Of a stretch of 10,229 nt of DNA, positions 253 through 10,229 are shown one piece after another. Numbering within the stretch: position 1 is the stretch's first letter; every line of letters starts with the position of its first letter. The position numbers and the translations under genes are program-made. Below the pieces are notes generated by a model. The model did not search any database and had not been told where the DNA came from. It was given only the letters and a program-made list of their open reading frames with translations. Source of the DNA: a virus. Its lineage: Duplodnaviria > Heunggongvirae > Uroviricota > Caudoviricetes. The DNA lies in the IMG/VR virus record IMGVR_UViG_2541047831_000006, one strand, 5' to 3'.

Positions 253-2714
253 TTAGTGCTTCCCTTCTATTAAGTCTAACCTAGCTTTTATTCTTTCTAT
301 TTCTCTGCGCTGCCATGCTGCCTCGATATAGAATAAGAGATCAGGTCTGACCCCCCATCTAGATCCTGCTGGCGTTATTTCAACGCGCTCAATGATGTCT
401 TCCATTACCATCACTGGATTATCATCCTCATCAACAATGATGCTCCCGTCATTATCAGTCAGCGGCATTTCCCTTTGGCCAGTAATGACGTCATCATATA
501 CTGCGGGATAATCGTCATAGCAAAGAAAGGCATAGCGGCATGTTGTGCTTTCTTCTTCCATGAGTCCGTGAGAAATAAGAACATCACGAAGTTGCTGCGC
601 GATTACACCATGATGTATCCTCGCCCCTTCTTCCCCCTTTATAGCGACAGCGTTCAGCCATTTATAAGCGATATACCTGACGTCACCCCAGGCATCCAGC
701 AATGTTTCGTCAGGAGAGACCGGCTCTGTCTTTAATGTTCCGTCACTGGTAACCACAGGATTGGAGCCAAGATAAACTATCGAGAACCTGTTTCCCGGAC
801 CACCAAGAGCATTTACATTATCAAGATAAGGTTTAACATCTCCGTTCTCAAAAAGATGTTCGAGTGCGTTATATACCGCGCGACGTGGAGTACTGCTTCT
901 GGAACCATGCAACGTTATCATTGCACCATCTGCTGAAGACGTTGTTTCACCGCCGCTAACGATTAATCTCTGAGCGGTAACATCATCAGACGGTACTTTC
1001 TTCGCAATAATGGCGTAATTACCCTCAAGTTTGACTTCCGCGCGAACTTGTCCTGATGTACCTGCATGGACAGTCAGTGACTGGACGGCAACATCATCTG
1101 TGAAATCAACGGGTACAGGAACCGTCCTCACGCCTGACGTCGACATAAAAGTAGGAAGCGTTCTGTTAGGAGTGGCTCCGTAGACAAAATCCCTTGAAAC
1201 AAATTCTTCCTGTTTAATTTTCACCCTGAAACAATACAAATCAGCCGGGTGACCATCGTGAACATAAGGATATTTTCTGTTGTTATCCCCTATGCTCCAT
1301 GGGTTTAGAAAGTCTTCCCCACCGAAAATGTAGTACAGCCAGTTGTCTTTGATACAAACTGAACCAACACCAACCGCAGAGTTAACTATTCCGCCCTGAT
1401 AAATCTGATCAGTAACATTAACCCACTCTACATTATCCAGACTCCACTCATTGACGTTAACTCTGGTCATAAATGTTCTTGGATAGTTTCCTGCATAACG
1501 GTTATCAGGTTCTCCTCCTTCCCACTCACCAAATGCGCGCTCACTGCCAAAAATAATCAGCTCATCGCCAACTTTGGCAAAAGGAAGGTTTGAGTGATGA
1601 ACATTATTTGGGAAGCGAAGAGAATTCCATGATGTACCTAAATCAGAGCTTCTGTGCAATGAACTACCGGGTTGAGTACTTAATGTCCCCCTGGTCGTCA
1701 GATACAGAATGCCATCATAATATTTTACACATGGCTCAGATGCATTCGCCTCATATTCTGCAGGTATGCGTCTGCGAACAAAGCTACCAGGAGAACCGAA
1801 AGCATCAGAGAAATAGAGTATCCCAAGCTCGCGTGGACCAATATCACCATTATGGTAGCCAACAGCAAAACTGTTATCGCTAATCGTCGCAAAACTGTGA
1901 ATCTCAGTAACAGGAGTGCTTCCGTCAACAAAAGAAGGAATAGTTCCAAGACTGGTTTTTCTCCATGGTGACGAGTGAAATGATGTACCAAAACTCCAGT
2001 ATCTACCCTCGTTATTCTGATCCACATCCTGGGTATTTTGCGTCGTAACTGTAAAAGTATTTTTATCAATAACAGTAGTCACCGTCATATTCCCGGTAAC
2101 ACCTGTAACACCAGAGTTTGAGAAGTTGACAAAATCACCAGCAAATAATCCGTGATCAGTAATGCGAATATAAGCGACTTGCTGATTTGCTGCTTTCGTT
2201 ATACCACCATAAACGCGAAGGCTGCGACTCATTGGGCGATCCCACAACTCTGCAACCTGCAGTTTATTTCCGCTCACGGTCCGCGTCTCAATTACAGCAA
2301 AAAGGCGATTTCTGACAACCCCCATACTCATGCAGTGATAGTTAACTGTGGGATAGTTTTCATGTAAATCTGTAAGCCATTCCGGCGTTGTCCAGGTCTT
2401 CCCGTCATCTCCTGAGCGAACCCATGCAACATGGAGGTTATTTACACCATGGCGGTCTCCAGCCATAAAAGGCGCATAGATGACATTGTCATATACAAAC
2501 GTTTTATCCTGCGTCCAGGCGTTGTACCACGGTGTATCTGTAATTTTAAATAACTCTCCCTGGATAAAATCTTCAGAAACATAAAAAAGAGGCTGACCCG
2601 GTATTCTCTCAAATAAAAAACGAGCATTTTTAAATCGACTGACATCTGGAAGAGTTGATACTTTAAAAGTAAGCCCTCGCCCATCTATCTTTTCACCACC
2701 TGTTGCAACAGAAA
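253..2714 (-). pseudogene. Endosialidase (endo-N-acetylneuraminidase) tailspike, 3' portion: catalytic region plus C-terminal intramolecular chaperone domain; separated from its 5' portion by IS911
   Basis: The 737-aa ORF (253..2466) aligns by eye to phage K1F endosialidase (DRHGV..HVSWV.SGDDG.TW.TPEWLTDLH..YPTVNYHCMSMGV, through LGSNPVVTSDG and the IHHGVIAQQLRDV chaperone region). The same frame stays open upstream of the first ATG through 2467..2714 (SVATGGEKIDGRGLTFKVSTLPDVSRFKNARFLFERIPGQPL...), so the ATG at 2466 is internal. The reading frame runs into the IS911 end at 2715. Confidence 0.85.
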
Positions 2715-2744
2715 TGAAGTGGTCAACAAAAACTGGCCACCGAG

Positions 2745-3892
<1,148 letters not shown>

Positions 3893-3964
3893 TATGGCAC
3901 CTGTGTTGTTCTGAGGTGAGCATATCACCTCTGTTCAGGTGGCCAAATTCAGTAAACCACTTCA

Positions 3965-4451
3965 AAAGTAATTCTGATAGAGCTGATGTATCATCATGAA
4001 CACCATCACCAATAGCCCCCCAACCTCTTACATCATAACTGTCTCTCCATCTTGCTATCTGAAGTTTTGGGTATTTATTCGCTCCATCTGGGTCTTCTAA
4101 TTGCTGCCGTAGTTGATCAGGATCATACTTCAGCACATTCTGGAAATAGAACTGCTGTACGCCATACGCATCGTACACAGCCATAGAATGGCCTTGCACA
4201 GTTACGAACTTGGCAATCCGTCCGTTATATACAGGGTAACCAGCAGCGTTAATGATGATTGGTTGCGAAACAGGAACGTGAGAGCCGTCTTCGTTCTCTA
4301 CATAAACCTGAATCCGGTTTTCAGGATTTACCGGGTCAGTGTCAATTTTACCGATATAAATTTTGCCATTGGCTACGGCTTTAAAAGAACGCGCCATAGT
4401 GAAGAGTTGCGAAGGCATCGATACAATCACATTGGCTGTAATGTCTGTCAT
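3965..4451 (-). pseudogene. Tailspike 5' portion: P22 gp9-like N-terminal head-binding domain followed by the start of the endosialidase region; reading frame runs into IS911
   Basis: N-terminus [11 protein letters not shown]...[21 protein letters not shown]...[10 protein letters not shown]...[13 protein letters not shown]...NVLKYDPDQ closely resembles the P22 tailspike head-binding domain. It then switches to endosialidase-like sequence ([20 protein letters not shown]) before the IS junction at 3964/3965. Start ATG at 4449..4451 with GGAG about 10 nt upstream. Confidence 0.85.
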
Positions 4452-4551: not shown

Positions 4552-5454
4552 TCAGTAATTATGTACTGAAGGAGGTAATTCTTTATTCTTAAGTCTCATC
4601 CATGCGGAAAGATTCGTTGGTCCGTCTGGCTCATTGATATCAACATCTCGTGTGTGATTGATTAAAACGTCTCTCGCCATATCGATAATACGGGAGAACT
4701 CATAACCGCAGTCATGACATCTGCCGGAATAGTTCGATTGAATTTGTTTTAGCGCCGGATACAGTTCGCGGAATAATGCCTGTGAGCGGTTGGCATAATC
4801 CCATAGCCATACAAGGCTGTTTGCTTCTTTTGCAGAAAGCTCGTTGGTTTTCTTCTCTTGTTTGCCGATGAACTCACCTTCAAGCACTACCCTGTGGATG
4901 TACTCTACTGCTTGTGGTATCTGAGATGCATCAAGCTCTTCAATACTTTCCACATTGAAACGCTGATGAATCATTGCATAAGCTTCTGGGTACATTAGAT
5001 GCTTTTTGCTGACTAGCATATTTACAGCATCACGAAGCGGAGTCCTGTCATCAACAGATGTTTTCTTCCGTGCATTTGCTGCCTCTCCCTTTGTCCAGTA
5101 GTCATGCAGCACAGTAAAGCATTCTTCCTGGTACTGAATCAGTTTATCGCGGATGTCAGCACGAACTTTCTCAGGGTTGATGCTGAACAGCCATCCATTT
5201 AACTTCTTCAAAGGAAGGCAGAGTAGCTTACGAAGCTTACCATCAGCGGCAACCATGTTCATATGAACACAGTTGAATTTGCTAATCTGCTTCATGAGTT
5301 TTGTTTGCTGCGTTGACCAGCTCATTCCGAGGTTTTCAACGATTGGCTTCATCGCAACATATGCAACTCCGGCAGCCATGGCGGTGATAATTTGCTGACC
5401 GTTGAATGGCACGTAAGAGGTGTTCACTGCTTCTAAAATTGCTATACTATTCAT
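4552..5454 (-). CDS. ant: Antirepressor Ant (P22 immI-type), about 300 aa; likely start at internal Met ([12 protein letters not shown]...) rather than the ORF-track start at 5520
   Basis: The ATG at 5452..5454 has GGAGA 8 nt upstream, while the ORF-track ATG at 5520 has no Shine-Dalgarno sequence. Gene order arc-ant-tailspike matches the P22 immI region. Identification as Ant rests on this context and on my recollection of the P22 Ant N-terminus. Confidence 0.7.
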
Positions 5455-5455
5455 G

Positions 5456-5522
5456 TTGGTTTTTCTCCACGGATTTACCGACAACCGAAGCCCTGACTGT
5501 TCCAGCAGTTGGGGCTTCACTG
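5456..5522 (+). ncRNA. Candidate sar-like antisense RNA (about 65-70 nt) complementary to the ant ribosome-binding region
   Basis: Plus-strand extended -10 element TGcTATACT (5441..5448) just inside the ant start. Downstream plus-strand hairpin GAAGCCC (5487..5493) / GGGCTTC (5512..5518) followed by a U-rich tract (TGTTTTGATTTCTTTG). The transcript would cover the ant Shine-Dalgarno (plus-strand TCTCC 5464..5468). Analogous to P22 sar. Confidence 0.3.
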
Positions 5523-5686
5523 TTTTGATTTCTTTGCCGCATCAAGCATCACTTCTGAAAACGTGCGCTTGCCACTGAATACTCTTTCTCTTCTCAATTT
5601 TTCGTTCGTGCCAAATGATTCGCCATGAACAAAATTTGGTCTTAAAATGGTAATCGCAATCTCTTTGACTACTGCATCCAAGCGAA

Positions 5687-5839
5687 TCACACCGTTACCC
5701 CCTCTCTCTTCAGGCTGTCTATCAGGCGCTTGATAACCTCTGAGTTAAACGACCTGCACTCTTCCTTTGCCCTGCTACCGATAGCATCCTTTAACGACTG
5801 CGGCATCCTTACCAAAATCTTACTTATTTCTTTCTCCAT
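5687..5839 (-). CDS. arc: Arc-like ribbon-helix-helix repressor (50 aa from the Met with the strong RBS)
   Basis: MEKEISKILVRMPQSLKDAIGSRAKEECRSFNSEVIKRLIDSLKREG resembles P22 Arc (..MPQFNLRWPREVLDLVRKVAEENGRSVNSEIYQRVMESFKKEG). GGAGG lies 6 nt upstream of the ATG at 5837..5839. The ORF-track start at 5875 lacks an RBS. Confidence 0.75.
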   Translation of the reverse strand: MEKEISKILVRMPQSLKDAIGSRAKEECRSFNSEVIKRLIDSLKREGVTV

Positions 5840-5953: not shown

Positions 5954-6202
5954 ATGGCAAAGGGTGTGTCAATTTCTCCAACTACGGTAAGAATCCCTGA
6001 ATCTTTACGCGAGGCTCTTGCTGTCAGAGCATCAAAAAATGGTCGCTCTGTTAACTCCGAGATCGTCATGATTTTGCAAGCCGCGATTGATGAAGATAGG
6101 TCGCCAAAGTCAGTTGAGTCATTTGCTCAGCAAGAAGCTGATAAATTCAAAGAGGCGCTACTTGAGACGCTAAAGACCATGTATGCTAAGGATGAAAAAT
6201 AA
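5954..6202 (+). CDS. mnt: Mnt-like ribbon-helix-helix repressor (82 aa from MAKG...)
   Basis: VRIPESLREALAVRASKNGRSVNSEIVMILQAAI and C-terminal EALLETLKTMYAK resemble P22 Mnt (FRMPMEVREKLKFRAEANGRSMNSELLQIVQDAL ... TLKDLYKK). Divergent from arc-ant as in P22 immI. RBS AAAGG upstream of the ATG at 5954. Confidence 0.75.
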   Translation: MAKGVSISPTTVRIPESLREALAVRASKNGRSVNSEIVMILQAAIDEDRSPKSVESFAQQEADKFKEALLETLKTMYAKDEK

Positions 6203-6738: not shown

Positions 6739-6761
6739 TGGGTAAATCATGATTACTCCTT

Positions 6762-6785
6762 ATAAAAAACCCACCTGACGGTGGG
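6762..6785 (-). terminator. Rho-independent terminator immediately after the YafO-like gene (minus strand); may also weakly terminate the convergent plus-strand ClpP-like transcript
   Basis: Stem CCCACC (6770..6775) / GGTGGG (6780..6785), loop TGAC. On the minus strand it is followed by TTTTTT (plus-strand A-run 6764..6769); on the plus strand only TTT follows. Confidence 0.6.
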
Positions 6786-6786
6786 T

Positions 6787-7236
6787 TTAGTCAAACATAG
6801 TGTTTCTAAAGTCTCTCGCATACCCTGCTAACACTCTCATTCTATTATGATTGTTAGCAGACATGTGAGCTACAGGATGAAAAAGAGCAATCAATGAATA
6901 CCTGTTCTCATCAAAAAGATTTTGTGCATAAACGAGAGCGGTATTGGATGTTTTATGCCACTGCAACTTTTGCGGTGTGCTGATATCTGTGCCATTTTTT
7001 ATTGGCTCAAATTTATTTTCACCAATTGCTAAATGAAGGTGCATAAGGCCTGCATCTTCAATATCAGGAGGTCGATGATAAGAGGTGTCTCTGCCAAAAT
7101 AGCTGGGCAACGTTCCCGTAGACTTGTAGATGATAAAATCATCTACAAGTGTTTGTTTTAAATCAGGAAACTCAACAAAAACCGGGGAGAAAAAATAGTC
7201 AAAACTATCCTGATTATATTCCACGGTTACTTGCAT
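6787..7236 (-). CDS. YafO-family-like toxin homolog (putative ribosome-dependent mRNA interferase), 149 aa; second gene of a two-gene operon
   Basis: By recollection of E. coli YafO: FIIYKSTGTLPSYFGRD vs FISYKRDGVLPDIFGRD; HLHLA vs HIHLA; ALVYAQNLFDE vs HLVYCQGAFDE; SLIALFHP vs LLIAILKP; NHNRMRVLAGYARDFR vs NNQMHKIGKMAEAFRM. GAGG RBS 6 nt upstream overlaps the upstream gene's TGA. Needs a database search to confirm. Confidence 0.5.
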   Translation of the reverse strand: MQVTVEYNQDSFDYFFSPVFVEFPDLKQTLVDDFIIYKSTGTLPSYFGRDTSYHRPPDIEDAGLMHLHLAIGENKFEPIKNGTDISTPQKLQWHKTSNTALVYAQNLFDENRYSLIALFHPVAHMSANNHNRMRVLAGYARDFRNTMFD

Positions 7237-7244
7237 GTTTTACC

Positions 7245-7811
7245 TCAGTGGAAGTTACCAGAGTGAAACACACGAGTCCCGTGCTCAGCAAGCGCACGCA
7301 AACCAGCCATATCTACGGAACTATCAAAAACAACCGGAACACATGAGCGTTGTTTAATAAGACTATTCAGGTTGGTTACGGCAGATCTGGCATCAGCAAC
7401 AACGATATAGATATCTCTTGCGATCTCTTTAAAATCAGCAGAAGCTTCTTTGAATACCGATTTCATTGCCCCTTCAAGTCCTCTCAATTGATGCTCTATC
7501 AATCGAGACTTTTCTGGTTCAATGATAGACAACACATTGTCTACATTCTCATCGGTAGCGTTTGCAAGAACACGATAAGCGTATTTCAGCATTCGAGACA
7601 ATTCTTTAATCGAAGACACCGCCTCATGAAGCTCATCATTAGCCCGTTCACTGCTGAATGAGGATTGATGGTAAGCGTGCTGAACGTTATCAGTAACAAC
7701 CACCTCACAACTGAACGCAGAAGCTTGCTGTAATAGCAAACCTATTGCGACTCCAGCTTTGGCAGCGTTCAAGCTAAACATTTCATCAATCCCATTAGTC
7801 TCATTGCTCAT
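7245..7811 (-). CDS. Hypothetical protein (188 aa from the Met with the AGGAGG RBS), first gene of the operon with the YafO-like gene; candidate antitoxin or sensor partner
   Basis: Strong RBS AAGGAGG 5-6 nt upstream of the ATG at 7809..7811; the ORF-track start at 7841 lacks one. Predicted largely helical; no motif I can assign. Its stop is 8 nt upstream of the YafO-like start. Confidence 0.55.
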   Translation of the reverse strand: MSNETNGIDEMFSLNAAKAGVAIGLLLQQASAFSCEVVVTDNVQHAYHQSSFSSERANDELHEAVSSIKELSRMLKYAYRVLANATDENVDNVLSIIEPEKSRLIEHQLRGLEGAMKSVFKEASADFKEIARDIYIVVADARSAVTNLNSLIKQRSCVPVVFDSSVDMAGLRALAEHGTRVFHSGNFH

Positions 7812-7986
7812 ACAAACCTCCTTCTTATCGGAGATTATCAATAGCTATGCATCCATTGAATACACGCTATGCGCAATAAGTTTACGTCACGTGATATCAT
7901 TATGCAACCACCGTTCTATCACCGACTAACTTTACTCCCACTCCTATACATCATCTGGTATCCTGCGCAAAACTAAGGAGGTTGGT
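7812..7986. promoter_or_regulatory. Divergent intergenic region between the hypothetical/YafO-like operon and the membrane-protein gene; contains overlapping palindromes TCACGTGA (7887..7894) and GATATC (7893..7898)
   Basis: Strong Shine-Dalgarno sequences on both flanks imply promoters for both divergent transcription units lie here. No confident -10/-35 assignment. Confidence 0.3.
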
Positions 7987-8337
7987 GTGAATGCTCAGTC
8001 TGTCATCATGGTTTTCCTTGGGCTGATTGTCGCAAAACTATATCCAGACTGGTGGAAAGGGGCATTAGCTACTGTCGCCATCTATTTGCTTTTATCCATC
8101 GTTAAGCGATCACTCGCTGAGACCGTAAATCAAGCAAAACGTTTCTCATTTAAGAGTTTAATAAACTATGTTACTGGGCTTATTTTTTGCCTTTCAATTC
8201 TGATCGCTTCGGCTTTTTTGCCCGTATCAATAGCTAATTTTTTTGGCGCACCATATGAGGTAGGTTATCTATTCTCTGTTTCCTGTCTTGCCATTGCTCT
8301 TCTTTACCTGTGGACGAGATCAAAGAATAAAAATTAG
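7987..8337 (+). CDS. Small integral membrane protein (116 aa, about 4 predicted transmembrane helices), GTG start
   Basis: AAGGAGG (7974..7980) 6 nt upstream of the GTG at 7987. Four hydrophobic segments (SVIMVFLGLIVAKLY; ALATVAIYLLLSIV; YVTGLIFCLSILIASAFL; YLFSVSCLAIALLYLW). Confidence 0.6.
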   Translation: MNAQSVIMVFLGLIVAKLYPDWWKGALATVAIYLLLSIVKRSLAETVNQAKRFSFKSLINYVTGLIFCLSILIASAFLPVSIANFFGAPYEVGYLFSVSCLAIALLYLWTRSKNKN

Positions 8338-8354: not shown

Positions 8355-8630
8355 TTATTGAGCTTCTTTTTGTGATGCCTGTGCGACTCTGGTGAGCGAT
8401 TGTGTGACCGTACTGATCGCTCTGTCATATGCTGTGCTACCTTTTGGCGTATTTGCCAGACGTAACAAGGCATTTCGTATAACAGGGCTTTCGTATGCCT
8501 TCGCAGCTCCTCCTACGACACCAGCAGCAGGAACAACAAACGCAGCCGTTTTTAGCATCCCCGCTAATACTGCTGCGTTTATGATGCCACCACCAACTAA
8601 CAATCCATAAAGCTGCTGACCATTTAAGTT
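8355..8630 (-). pseudogene. Possible 3' fragment of a gene truncated by IS911 copy 2 (Gly/Ala-rich hydrophobic segment, then a polar C-terminus)
   Basis: The minus-strand frame is open from the IS boundary (8630) through to the stop at 8355. The only in-frame starts are TTG (8603) and an ATG (8558) with a weak RBS. No target-site duplication at this IS copy. Confidence 0.3.
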
Positions 8631-8702
8631 TGAAGTGGTTTACTGAATTTGGCCACCTGAACAGAGGTGATATGCTCACCTCAGAACAACACAGGTGCCA
8701 TA

Positions 8703-9850
<1,148 letters not shown>

Positions 9851-9961
9851 CTCGGTGGCCAGTTTTTGTTGACCACTTCACTATGACCACTGGATGCTGT
9901 GGGCGCAGATAGCACATGCAGACGTAACTAATATTCGAATTGAAGAACTGAAAGAACACCA

Positions 9962-10028: not shown

Positions 10029-10229
10029 ATGCAACACGAACTACAACCTGATTCACTGGTTGATTTGAAATTCATCATGGCCGATACTGGCTTCGGTAAA
10101 ACCTTCATCTATGACCGGATTAAGTCCGGCGACCTGCCAAAAGCCAAAGTTATCCACGGGCGAGCAAGATGGTTATATCGTGACCATTGTGAATTCAAAA
10201 ATAAGCTCTTAAGCCGCGCCAATGGGTAA
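10029..10229 (+). CDS. AlpA-family (phage excisionase-like, MerR-type HTH) transcriptional regulator, 66 aa
   Basis: GGAGA 8 nt upstream of the ATG. The segment LKFIMADTGFGKTFIYDRIKSGDLPKAKVIHGRARWLYRDHCEFKNKL has the AlpA-like pattern. Such genes typically sit in integrase-bearing islands. Confidence 0.55.
   Translation: MQHELQPDSLVDLKFIMADTGFGKTFIYDRIKSGDLPKAKVIHGRARWLYRDHCEFKNKLLSRANG

Follow-up and report, generated by a model that had tools for sequence, protein, structure and literature searches.

The virus record IMGVR_UViG_2541047831_000006 (Caudoviricetes), a stretch of 10,229 nucleotides that is referred to below in its entirety as the window, contains the late/immI end of a P22-like Escherichia coli prophage broken by the insertion sequence (IS) ISEc52. 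Two minus-strand genes of this prophage encode a toxin of the YafO family and, directly upstream of it, a protein of 188 amino acids that we call the partner. Pairing of the two families appears to be obligate, which is the main new result of this work. We put at about 0.6 the probability that the pair is a moron-borne YafO-family endoribonuclease with a dedicated upstream partner, the production of the two being coupled and the partner most likely restraining the nuclease.

Pairing, gene organisation and insertion sites

The initial annotation treated the two genes as one unit, and in searches that were seeded separately from the partner and from the toxin they are indeed adjacent in all evaluable loci. 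Starting from the partner, homologues with 54–65% identity (Salmonella houtenae, Salmonella diarizonae and other assemblies) have a PF13957 gene 8 nt downstream and lie in the slot between gene 16 and mnt. Every partner homologue that was looked up (54–79% and 20–28% identity) has PF13957 directly downstream, and in IMG/VR the toxin follows the partner in 28 of 28 loci. Starting from the toxin, homologues with 56–71% identity on siphoviral and lambdoid contigs have in every case an ∼190-amino-acid gene upstream at the same spacing, the product of which aligns with the partner at 34–41% identity. The toxin-seeded search of IMG/VR returned the same 28 contigs plus one that is cut at the contig end.

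A scan of IMG/VR for the distant toxin clade produced 80 loci. Leaving out the 13 that are cut at a contig end, the partner is found directly upstream in each of those that can be evaluated (67/67). The pair is also adjacent in 12 of 12 contigs and in nine of nine genomes from a set of one reference per species (Buttiauxella, Serratia, Acerihabitans, a metagenome-assembled Enterobacterales genome, Pluralibacter, Enterobacter, two Pseudomonas and an Orbaceae). The total is 116 of 116 evaluable loci, with intergenic gaps of 3–39 nt and identities of about 20–100%; adjacency persists to a partner identity of about 23%. Among cultured phages, the pair occurs in HK639 (genes 17/18, with an annotated terminator after them) and in Pseudomonas vB_PaeS-D14L. 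No YafN-like gene was seen beside any phage YafO in the loci retrieved.

The two proteins diverge together. Their pairwise identities correlate with r = 0.92, and the partner is always more diverged than the toxin (65% identity where the toxin has 89%, for instance, and 24% where it has 33–39%). The ratio of nonsynonymous to synonymous substitution rates (dN/dS) is 0.06–0.21 for the partner and 0.03–0.16 for the toxin, with dN about three times higher for the partner. Since dN/dS does not exceed 0.21, both genes are real and under constraint.

A side observation concerns the edges of provirus contigs in IMG/VR. Thirteen of these begin at, or a few bases from, the toxin start codon (loci L094–L096, L098, L102, L107, L114–L116, L120, L121, L127 and L132), and about 20 more begin at the first codon of the partner. 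Provirus boundary callers appear to cut through or beside the pair.

The gene organisation described in the initial annotation is confirmed in each of its parts (coordinates in Table 1). The partner start is preceded at 5 nt by a strong Shine–Dalgarno sequence, AAGGAGG, which is kept in the Salmonella homologues. The TGA stop codon of the partner overlaps the GAGG ribosome-binding site (RBS) of the toxin gene in a junction that reads CAC-TGA-GG-TAAAAC-ATG, with an intergenic gap of 8 nt and a spacing of 6 nt between GAGG and the toxin ATG. A CAC/CAT-TGA-GGT junction recurs in loci L003, L006, L007, L009 and L011–L013. The operon ends in a strong intrinsic terminator, a GC-rich stem of 9 bp (AAACCCACC/GGUGGGUUU) with a GUCA loop followed by UUUAUA. 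Its fold energy is −16.1 kcal/mol (z = −2.96), it overlaps the toxin stop codon and it also faces a convergent ClpP-like gene. The same 42 nt carry the annotation 'terminator' in phage Emek. A simple terminator scanner missed this hairpin, as the maximal stem takes up three U's of the T-run.

Upstream of the partner, the sequence TTGCAT-N17-TAAACT is a candidate σ70 promoter of the pair. It scores 7/12 against the consensus, which is under the threshold of the scanner, and TTGCA and GTAnACTTATT are kept in three Salmonella versions of the intergenic region. It could instead drive the divergent gene that starts at 7987. A search of the promoter region for operator-like repeats gave no more than a direct repeat of 10 nt in two copies and the RBS of the divergent gene, which mirrors that of the partner.

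Three further candidate elements were considered and rejected. An in-frame TTG at 7841, the outer limit given in the initial annotation, as start of the partner would put the Shine–Dalgarno sequence inside the open reading frame (ORF), and RefSeq calls the 188-amino-acid form. An RNA antitoxin of a type III system finds no Rfam family other than terminator-like fragments, and there are no tandem repeats. Finally, the toxin gene contains an inverted repeat with perfect arms of 13 bp and a loop of 3 nt (ACTTGTAGATGAT-AAA-ATCATCTACAAGT, in the codons for LVDDFIIYK). It is weaker in the Salmonella homologues, more distant homologues do not have it and the VDD/IIY codons account for most of it, and it is probably non-functional.

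The pair occupies at least five unrelated slots in temperate phages. The first is the sieA slot of P22-like prophages, which runs from gene 16 to mnt/arc/ant/tailspike. This includes the window, where the pair lies between the gp16 fragment and mnt, in the sieA-equivalent position that the initial annotation had assigned to it. In P22-like phages sieA is situated between genes 16 and 9 and is carried by only 22 of 66 members (Leavitt et al., PMC10883804). The other slots are directly downstream of a cI-like repressor gene (L019/L020), in the tail operon after the tape-measure gene (including HK639, where the pair has its own terminator), between a Q-like antiterminator gene and the holin gene, and, in single loci, next to the integrase gene. 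These slots are typical of lysogen-expressed exclusion genes and argue for a lysogen-expressed cargo cassette. With its terminator, its conserved candidate promoter and a slot in which the cargo varies among related phages (phiv205-1 has a different cargo in the same P22-type slot), the pair is a self-contained moron of temperate phages.

The toxin and its partner protein

The initial annotation recognised the downstream protein as YafO-like from several motif matches, and database searches agree. The toxin matches Pfam family PF13957 with 78.9 bits (cut-off 25; E = 3.4e-22) over profile positions 3–101 of 101, and BLASTP aligns it with K-12 YafO at 38% identity over 120 amino acids (E = 7e-20). 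Against NCBIfam PRK09885 it scores 79 bits. Since this is significant but under the equivalog cut-off of 153, the toxin is a member of the YafO family and not the orthologue of K-12 YafO. The family assignment is correct but not new, RefSeq already using the name 'type II toxin-antitoxin system YafO family toxin'; in PHROGs the protein belongs to phrog_1651, which is unnamed. A sequence search of the PDB gave no match for the toxin, and the assignment of a BECR (barnase–EndoU–colicin E5/D–RelE) fold to it rests on Pfam and on the literature (PMC11980606). K-12 YafO is an mRNA endoribonuclease, the ribosome dependence of which is debated (PMC8546651, PMC11980606).

From the window toxin through to K-12 YafO, the residues Asp33, Phe34, Tyr37, Pro44, Phe47, Gly48, Tyr53, His66, His68, Phe76, Gln92, Leu101-Val102-Tyr103, Ala117, Pro121, His124, Met133 and Phe143 are invariant, and Arg49 and Asp50 are nearly so. 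The motifs DF-Y, FGRD, H-x-H-L, LVY and P-x-x-H of K-12 YafO are thus kept. Because this conservation extends to K-12 YafO, the likely active-site residues are retained, and the invariant polar His, Arg, Asp and Tyr side chains are candidate catalytic residues. Compared with K-12 YafO, the proteins of the phage clade are longer by about 12 residues at the N-terminus and contain an internal insertion. The clade is also acidic (isoelectric point, pI, 4.7–6.6, against ∼7.0 for K-12 YafO), which is unusual for an RNA-binding toxin.

The partner belongs to phrog_8416, a family to which PHROGs assigns no function and the members of which are called 'hypothetical protein' in all sources. It has no match in Pfam, NCBIfam or the PDB, and 30 family members are likewise without a Pfam match. 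Searching the PDB with a profile of the partner returned only noise. An exhaustive hidden Markov model search, which covered 1.84 billion cluster representatives, yielded no more than 24 proteins at E ≤ 1e-3. As the initial annotation stated, the partner has roughly double the length of YafN and no relationship to it (188 against 97 amino acids; BLASTP E = 36). PADLOC aligns the partner with the tail of ZorA, a coiled coil, at 14 bits (E = 0.004); this match was taken as compositional and discarded.

AlphaFold models the partner with an overall predicted local distance difference test score (pLDDT) of 70. An N-terminal helix (residues 16–35) is followed by a disordered, low-confidence and variable linker (36–53), a confident helical bundle (54–155; pLDDT 84–94) and a short C-terminal helix. 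Seven closer homologues (34–65% identity) share the motifs G-L-L-x-Q, QLRGLEG, A-x-A-R and L-N-x-L-x-x-Q, and this subgroup has a conserved C-terminal tail that ends in HGTxVFxSGxFH. In the alignment of 30 members no position is strictly invariant. Met11, Arg110, Glu113, Ala141, Arg142, Gln154, Ser164, Leu171 and Leu174 are nearly so. Because LRxLE, AKAR and the Gln, Ser and Leu positions up to about 174 fall in the C-terminal half, this half is the likely interface. The pI of the partner swings between subgroups from 5.3 to 9.4.

Proposed mode of action and competing explanations

The pair resembles the K-12 YafN–YafO module (dinB-yafNOP) in that its PF13957 toxin is encoded by the downstream gene of a tightly coupled pair. 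The differences lie in the upstream protein and in the setting. YafN is of the Phd type, whereas the partner (∼190 amino acids) is all-helical with a hydrophobic N-terminus; yafNO is part of the dinB SOS operon, whereas the window pair forms a phage moron with a terminator and a candidate promoter. As neither a YafN antitoxin nor a dinB operon is present, the pair would work like a YafO toxin–antitoxin (TA) module without being YafNO. Set against type II TA modules in general, in which a smaller and faster-evolving antitoxin is encoded upstream and is translationally coupled, the picture is mixed: gene order, coupling and faster evolution agree, but the partner is larger than the toxin (149 amino acids). 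It has no ribbon–helix–helix (RHH), helix–turn–helix (HTH), AbrB or Phd domain in Pfam or NCBIfam. Its size, all-helical fold, lack of a recognisable DNA-binding domain and signal-like N-terminus indicate that it is not a classical type II antitoxin.

P22 SieA shares with the pair the slot between ejection gene 16 and mnt/gene 9, and the pair is presumably lysogen-expressed as well. SieA, however, blocks DNA injection and consists of one polytopic protein of the inner membrane, which carries the motif FxRYPxEAxxFNK, whereas neither protein of the pair is polytopic and the cassette instead encodes a predicted cytoplasmic RNase. None of the six frames of the window contains the SieA motif, and no relationship to SieA emerged at the sequence level. 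RexA–RexB of phage lambda is also a two-gene lysogen cassette with one hydrophobic or membrane-directed component and one cytoplasmic component, and in loci L019/L020 the pair adjoins a cI-like repressor gene as rexAB does. RexB is polytopic and channel-like, and RexA does not act as an RNase. Neither has sequence or domain similarity to the pair, and the analogy is one of architecture only.

TA modules of the RelE/ParE superfamily (for example HigB-containing toxin–antitoxin–chaperone systems) are likewise located on mobile elements and combine an mRNase toxin of the BECR fold with a second protein. Unlike the window partner, their antitoxins contain HTH, RHH or Phd domains that can be recognised, and they lack an export-like signal. 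An abortive-infection role is documented for some RelE-superfamily modules (PMC11980606); no report of phage defence by a YafO-family member was found in the searchable literature. In an earlier survey, toxins of the YafO superfamily pair either with Phd or with unclassified upstream genes, taken as antitoxins through guilt by association, and no YafO was found on phages (Leplae et al., 2011, PMC3141249). The partner family may be among these unclassified genes. It was left undescribed in that work and is defined here as a phage-borne family with an apparently obligate link to the toxin.

In the reading that we prefer, translational coupling would provide the partner together with the toxin in fixed proportion, the pair being expressed constitutively in the lysogen. 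The toxin would cleave mRNA and arrest translation, by analogy with K-12 YafO, and the partner is predicted to bind and neutralise it, probably through its conserved C-terminal half. A superinfecting phage is our tentative choice for the trigger, at somewhat less than even odds, and the pair would then act in abortive infection or exclusion. Prophage loss, which would make it an addiction module, is a rather doubtful trigger. The term 'candidate' that the initial annotation attached to a TA or abortive-infection module is appropriate. Of the three conditions that would have refuted that annotation, two were checked, namely a lack of YafO-family similarity and a lack of co-conservation, and neither applies.

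Several observations weigh against this reading. No recognisable antitoxin or DNA-binding domain is found in the partner or in the 30 family members (Pfam, NCBIfam), and fold searches with the AlphaFold model return only generic helical bundles. In PADLOC-DB 2.0 the toxin has no match and the partner no accepted match. The usual pattern of a basic toxin with an acidic antitoxin is absent, since the toxin has a pI of 4.7–6.6 and the partner of 5.3–9.4. The AlphaFold model of the toxin (from a 15-sequence alignment) is poor, with a pLDDT of 52, which is too low to support a fold search. Literature searches found no published experiment on this pair. Finally, an N-terminus that resembles an export signal is present throughout the partner family. 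If this signal is functional, the partner leaves the compartment of the toxin and cannot be a classical cytoplasmic antitoxin.

This last point opens the way to an envelope-coupled system, in which the partner is exported or anchored in the inner membrane and controls the nuclease through its location. Read from the conserved Met11, the window partner begins MFSLNAAK-AGVAIGLLL-QQASA/FSC, the slash following the small-x-small site. Remote subgroups have unlike sequences with the same layout of a charged or polar n-region, 9–14 hydrophobic residues and a small-x-small site (compare MNSLYAIKLATLCGVLAQPGAMA/E, MANHSVINSAILAALFAFSSQA/D and MNLSLRSCLAVVLFGGVLSVPSFSA/G; further, ...LCGVLAQPGAMA/E, ...LFAFSSQA/D and ...GGVLSVPSFSA/G). 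This n–h–c organisation in each subgroup despite unlike sequences speaks for export, as does the AlphaFold model with its isolated helix and low-confidence linker ahead of the confident domain. A heuristic of our own, which combines hydropathy with the −3/−1 rule, is positive for 59 of 66 partner ORFs, for none of 51 toxins and for 91 of 481 other ORFs of the same loci; most of the partner ORFs that it misses have a wrongly chosen start. It is a crude test and not SignalP, and its background of 19% reduces what can be concluded from it.

Other features fit poorly with export. In the window subgroup the h-region is only nine residues long and the n-region from the Shine–Dalgarno-led ATG is net acidic (MSNETNGIDEMFSLNAAK), neither of which favours Sec targeting. 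The hydrophobic stretch contains the G-L-L-x-Q motif, which, like QLRGLEG, does not vary among the seven closer homologues, and this suits a protein contact better than a signal. A constitutively co-translated RNase without a cytoplasmic neutraliser should moreover do harm, but many lineages keep the cassette stably. We found no precedent for a periplasmic antitoxin in the searchable literature. On balance we consider an envelope-coupled system unlikely. It could take the form of an unexported precursor that builds up and switches the toxin when a phage depolarises the membrane or blocks Sec, or of a partner that acts alone in the periplasm against DNA injection. The more specific proposal, that the partner is Sec-exported or membrane-anchored and that its export status governs the cytoplasmic YafO RNase, with perturbation of the envelope, the proton motive force or Sec by a phage leading to translation arrest, is less probable again; a system of this kind would match neither classical type II TA modules nor the defence systems catalogued so far. 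With its signal-peptide-like N-terminus and no DNA-binding domain, 'antitoxin' is perhaps the wrong word for the partner.

Phd–Doc stabilises P1 by post-segregational killing, and the pair could in the same way be a pure addiction module that stabilises the prophage, or its remnant, and has no anti-phage role. The cassette is intact within an IS-riddled prophage remnant, it has the gene order and coupling that TA modules typically show, and it often lies at the edge of provirus contigs in IMG/VR and, in single loci, beside an integrase gene. An integrated prophage is, however, rarely lost by segregation, the slots in which the pair is repeatedly found are known for exclusion genes (the sieA position, the one after cI and the moron position in the tail operon), and lability of the partner is hypothetical. 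We judge addiction as the sole role to be quite improbable. That the two genes are independent cargo, an exported lysogenic-conversion protein beside an orphan toxin that is restrained otherwise, for example by a host chromosomal YafN, would agree with a survey of P. aeruginosa prophages that lists 'YafO toxin alone' (PMC10449497) and with the putative nature of the partner–toxin interaction, but is very hard to reconcile with adjacency in 116 of 116 loci with 3–39-nt gaps over ∼20–100% identity and at least five insertion contexts, with a conserved stop/RBS overlap, with the correlated divergence (r = 0.92) and with hosts that include Pseudomonas and Orbaceae (listed without regard to their yafN content).

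Prophage setting and significance

The region with the pair is 100% identical in avian pathogenic E. coli (APEC) O1, S88, ATCC 11775 and about 50 other complete E. coli genomes (for the cassette the count is 55), and in APEC O1 the prophage occupies the tRNA-Arg (argW)/intS site. The ISEc52 copies belong to the IS3 family and are identical and inverted relative to each other. One splits the tailspike gene and the other cuts the gp16 ejection gene, of which only a 3′ fragment is left. Because these two genes are broken the prophage is a remnant, likely as the result of an IS-mediated deletion or rearrangement, and the cassette is intact despite this. Past the second copy lies an AlpA-like gene that no longer belongs to the prophage late region. 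Between arc and ant there is an ORF of 57 amino acids, a hypothetical protein of APEC O1 in RefSeq; a similar small gene is called at the same position in related Salmonella loci.

Table 1. Positions of the partner/toxin operon, its signals and the surrounding genes in the window.
Feature	Position	Strand	Remarks
Partner gene, 188 aa	7245..7811	minus	ATG 7811..7809, TGA 7247..7245
YafO-family toxin gene, 149 aa	6787..7236	minus	ATG at 7236, TAA at 6787
Shine–Dalgarno sequence of partner	7817..7823	minus	
Coupling junction TGAGG	7243..7247	minus	toxin RBS 7246..7243
Signal-peptide-like segment of partner, residues 11–32	7716..7781	minus	
Candidate σ70 promoter	7879..7907	minus	−35 at 7907..7902, −10 at 7884..7879
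Intrinsic terminator	6761..6788		stem 6788..6767
Inverted repeat in toxin gene	7122-7150		
Tailspike gene	253-2466 + 3861-4451	minus	split by ISEc52 copy
ISEc52 copy 1	∼2690-3935 (approximate)		transposase ORF 2745-3928, minus; RefSeq annotation
ant	4552-5520	minus	
57-aa ORF	5517-5690	minus	
arc	adjoins 57-aa ORF	minus	
mnt	5954-6202	plus	Mnt-like RHH repressor
ClpP-like gene, 178 aa	6202-6738	plus	PF00574, E = 2e-11
116-aa membrane-protein gene	7987-8337	plus	divergent from the pair
Inverted repeat at partner and 116-aa gene starts	7808-7823 / 7975-7990		
gp16 ejection gene, 3′ fragment	8355-8603	minus	cut by second, inverted ISEc52 copy
ISEc52 copy 2	∼8640-9890 (approximate)		transposase ORF 8667-9850, plus; RefSeq annotation
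AlpA-like gene	10029-10229		

Two neighbouring genes were considered as components of the system and rejected. The ClpP-like gene sits 3′ of mnt, where P22 has orf59a and sieA, and its start is overlapped by the mnt stop codon. Its best NCBIfam and PHROG matches are head-maturation proteases, and by eye the Ser and His of the ClpP catalytic site are apparently retained in its product. The Salmonella versions of the pair lack this gene, and phiv205-1 has it without the pair; since gene and pair occur without each other, it is separate cargo. The divergent 116-amino-acid protein has three or four hydrophobic segments. The RBS and start of its gene mirror those of the partner in an inverted repeat (AAGGAGGTTnGTnTG), and in the Salmonella versions a gene with the same conserved start and another length (107–297 amino acids) takes its place. 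No homologue was found in the phage collection by tblastn, there is no Pfam, PHROG or PADLOC match, and the SieA motif is absent. Only in P22-like prophages is the gene found with the pair, siphoviral and lambdoid loci of the pair being without it; its product might itself serve in exclusion.

Phage-borne YafO genes, which have been surveyed as orphans (PMC10449497), have one dedicated and previously undescribed partner family in every evaluable case. The two genes form a distinct mobile system that is confined to temperate phages of Gammaproteobacteria, and it is present in the cultured and tractable phage HK639 as well as in common lineages of extraintestinal and avian pathogenic E. coli (APEC O1 and S88). 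Should the partner really be exported, this would be an unusual way to control a cytoplasmic toxin. If the pair is an addiction module only, it would help to explain why the cassette outlives the surrounding prophage. If it excludes phages, prophage immunity would gain a YafO-based system and the P22 sieA slot a further occupant.

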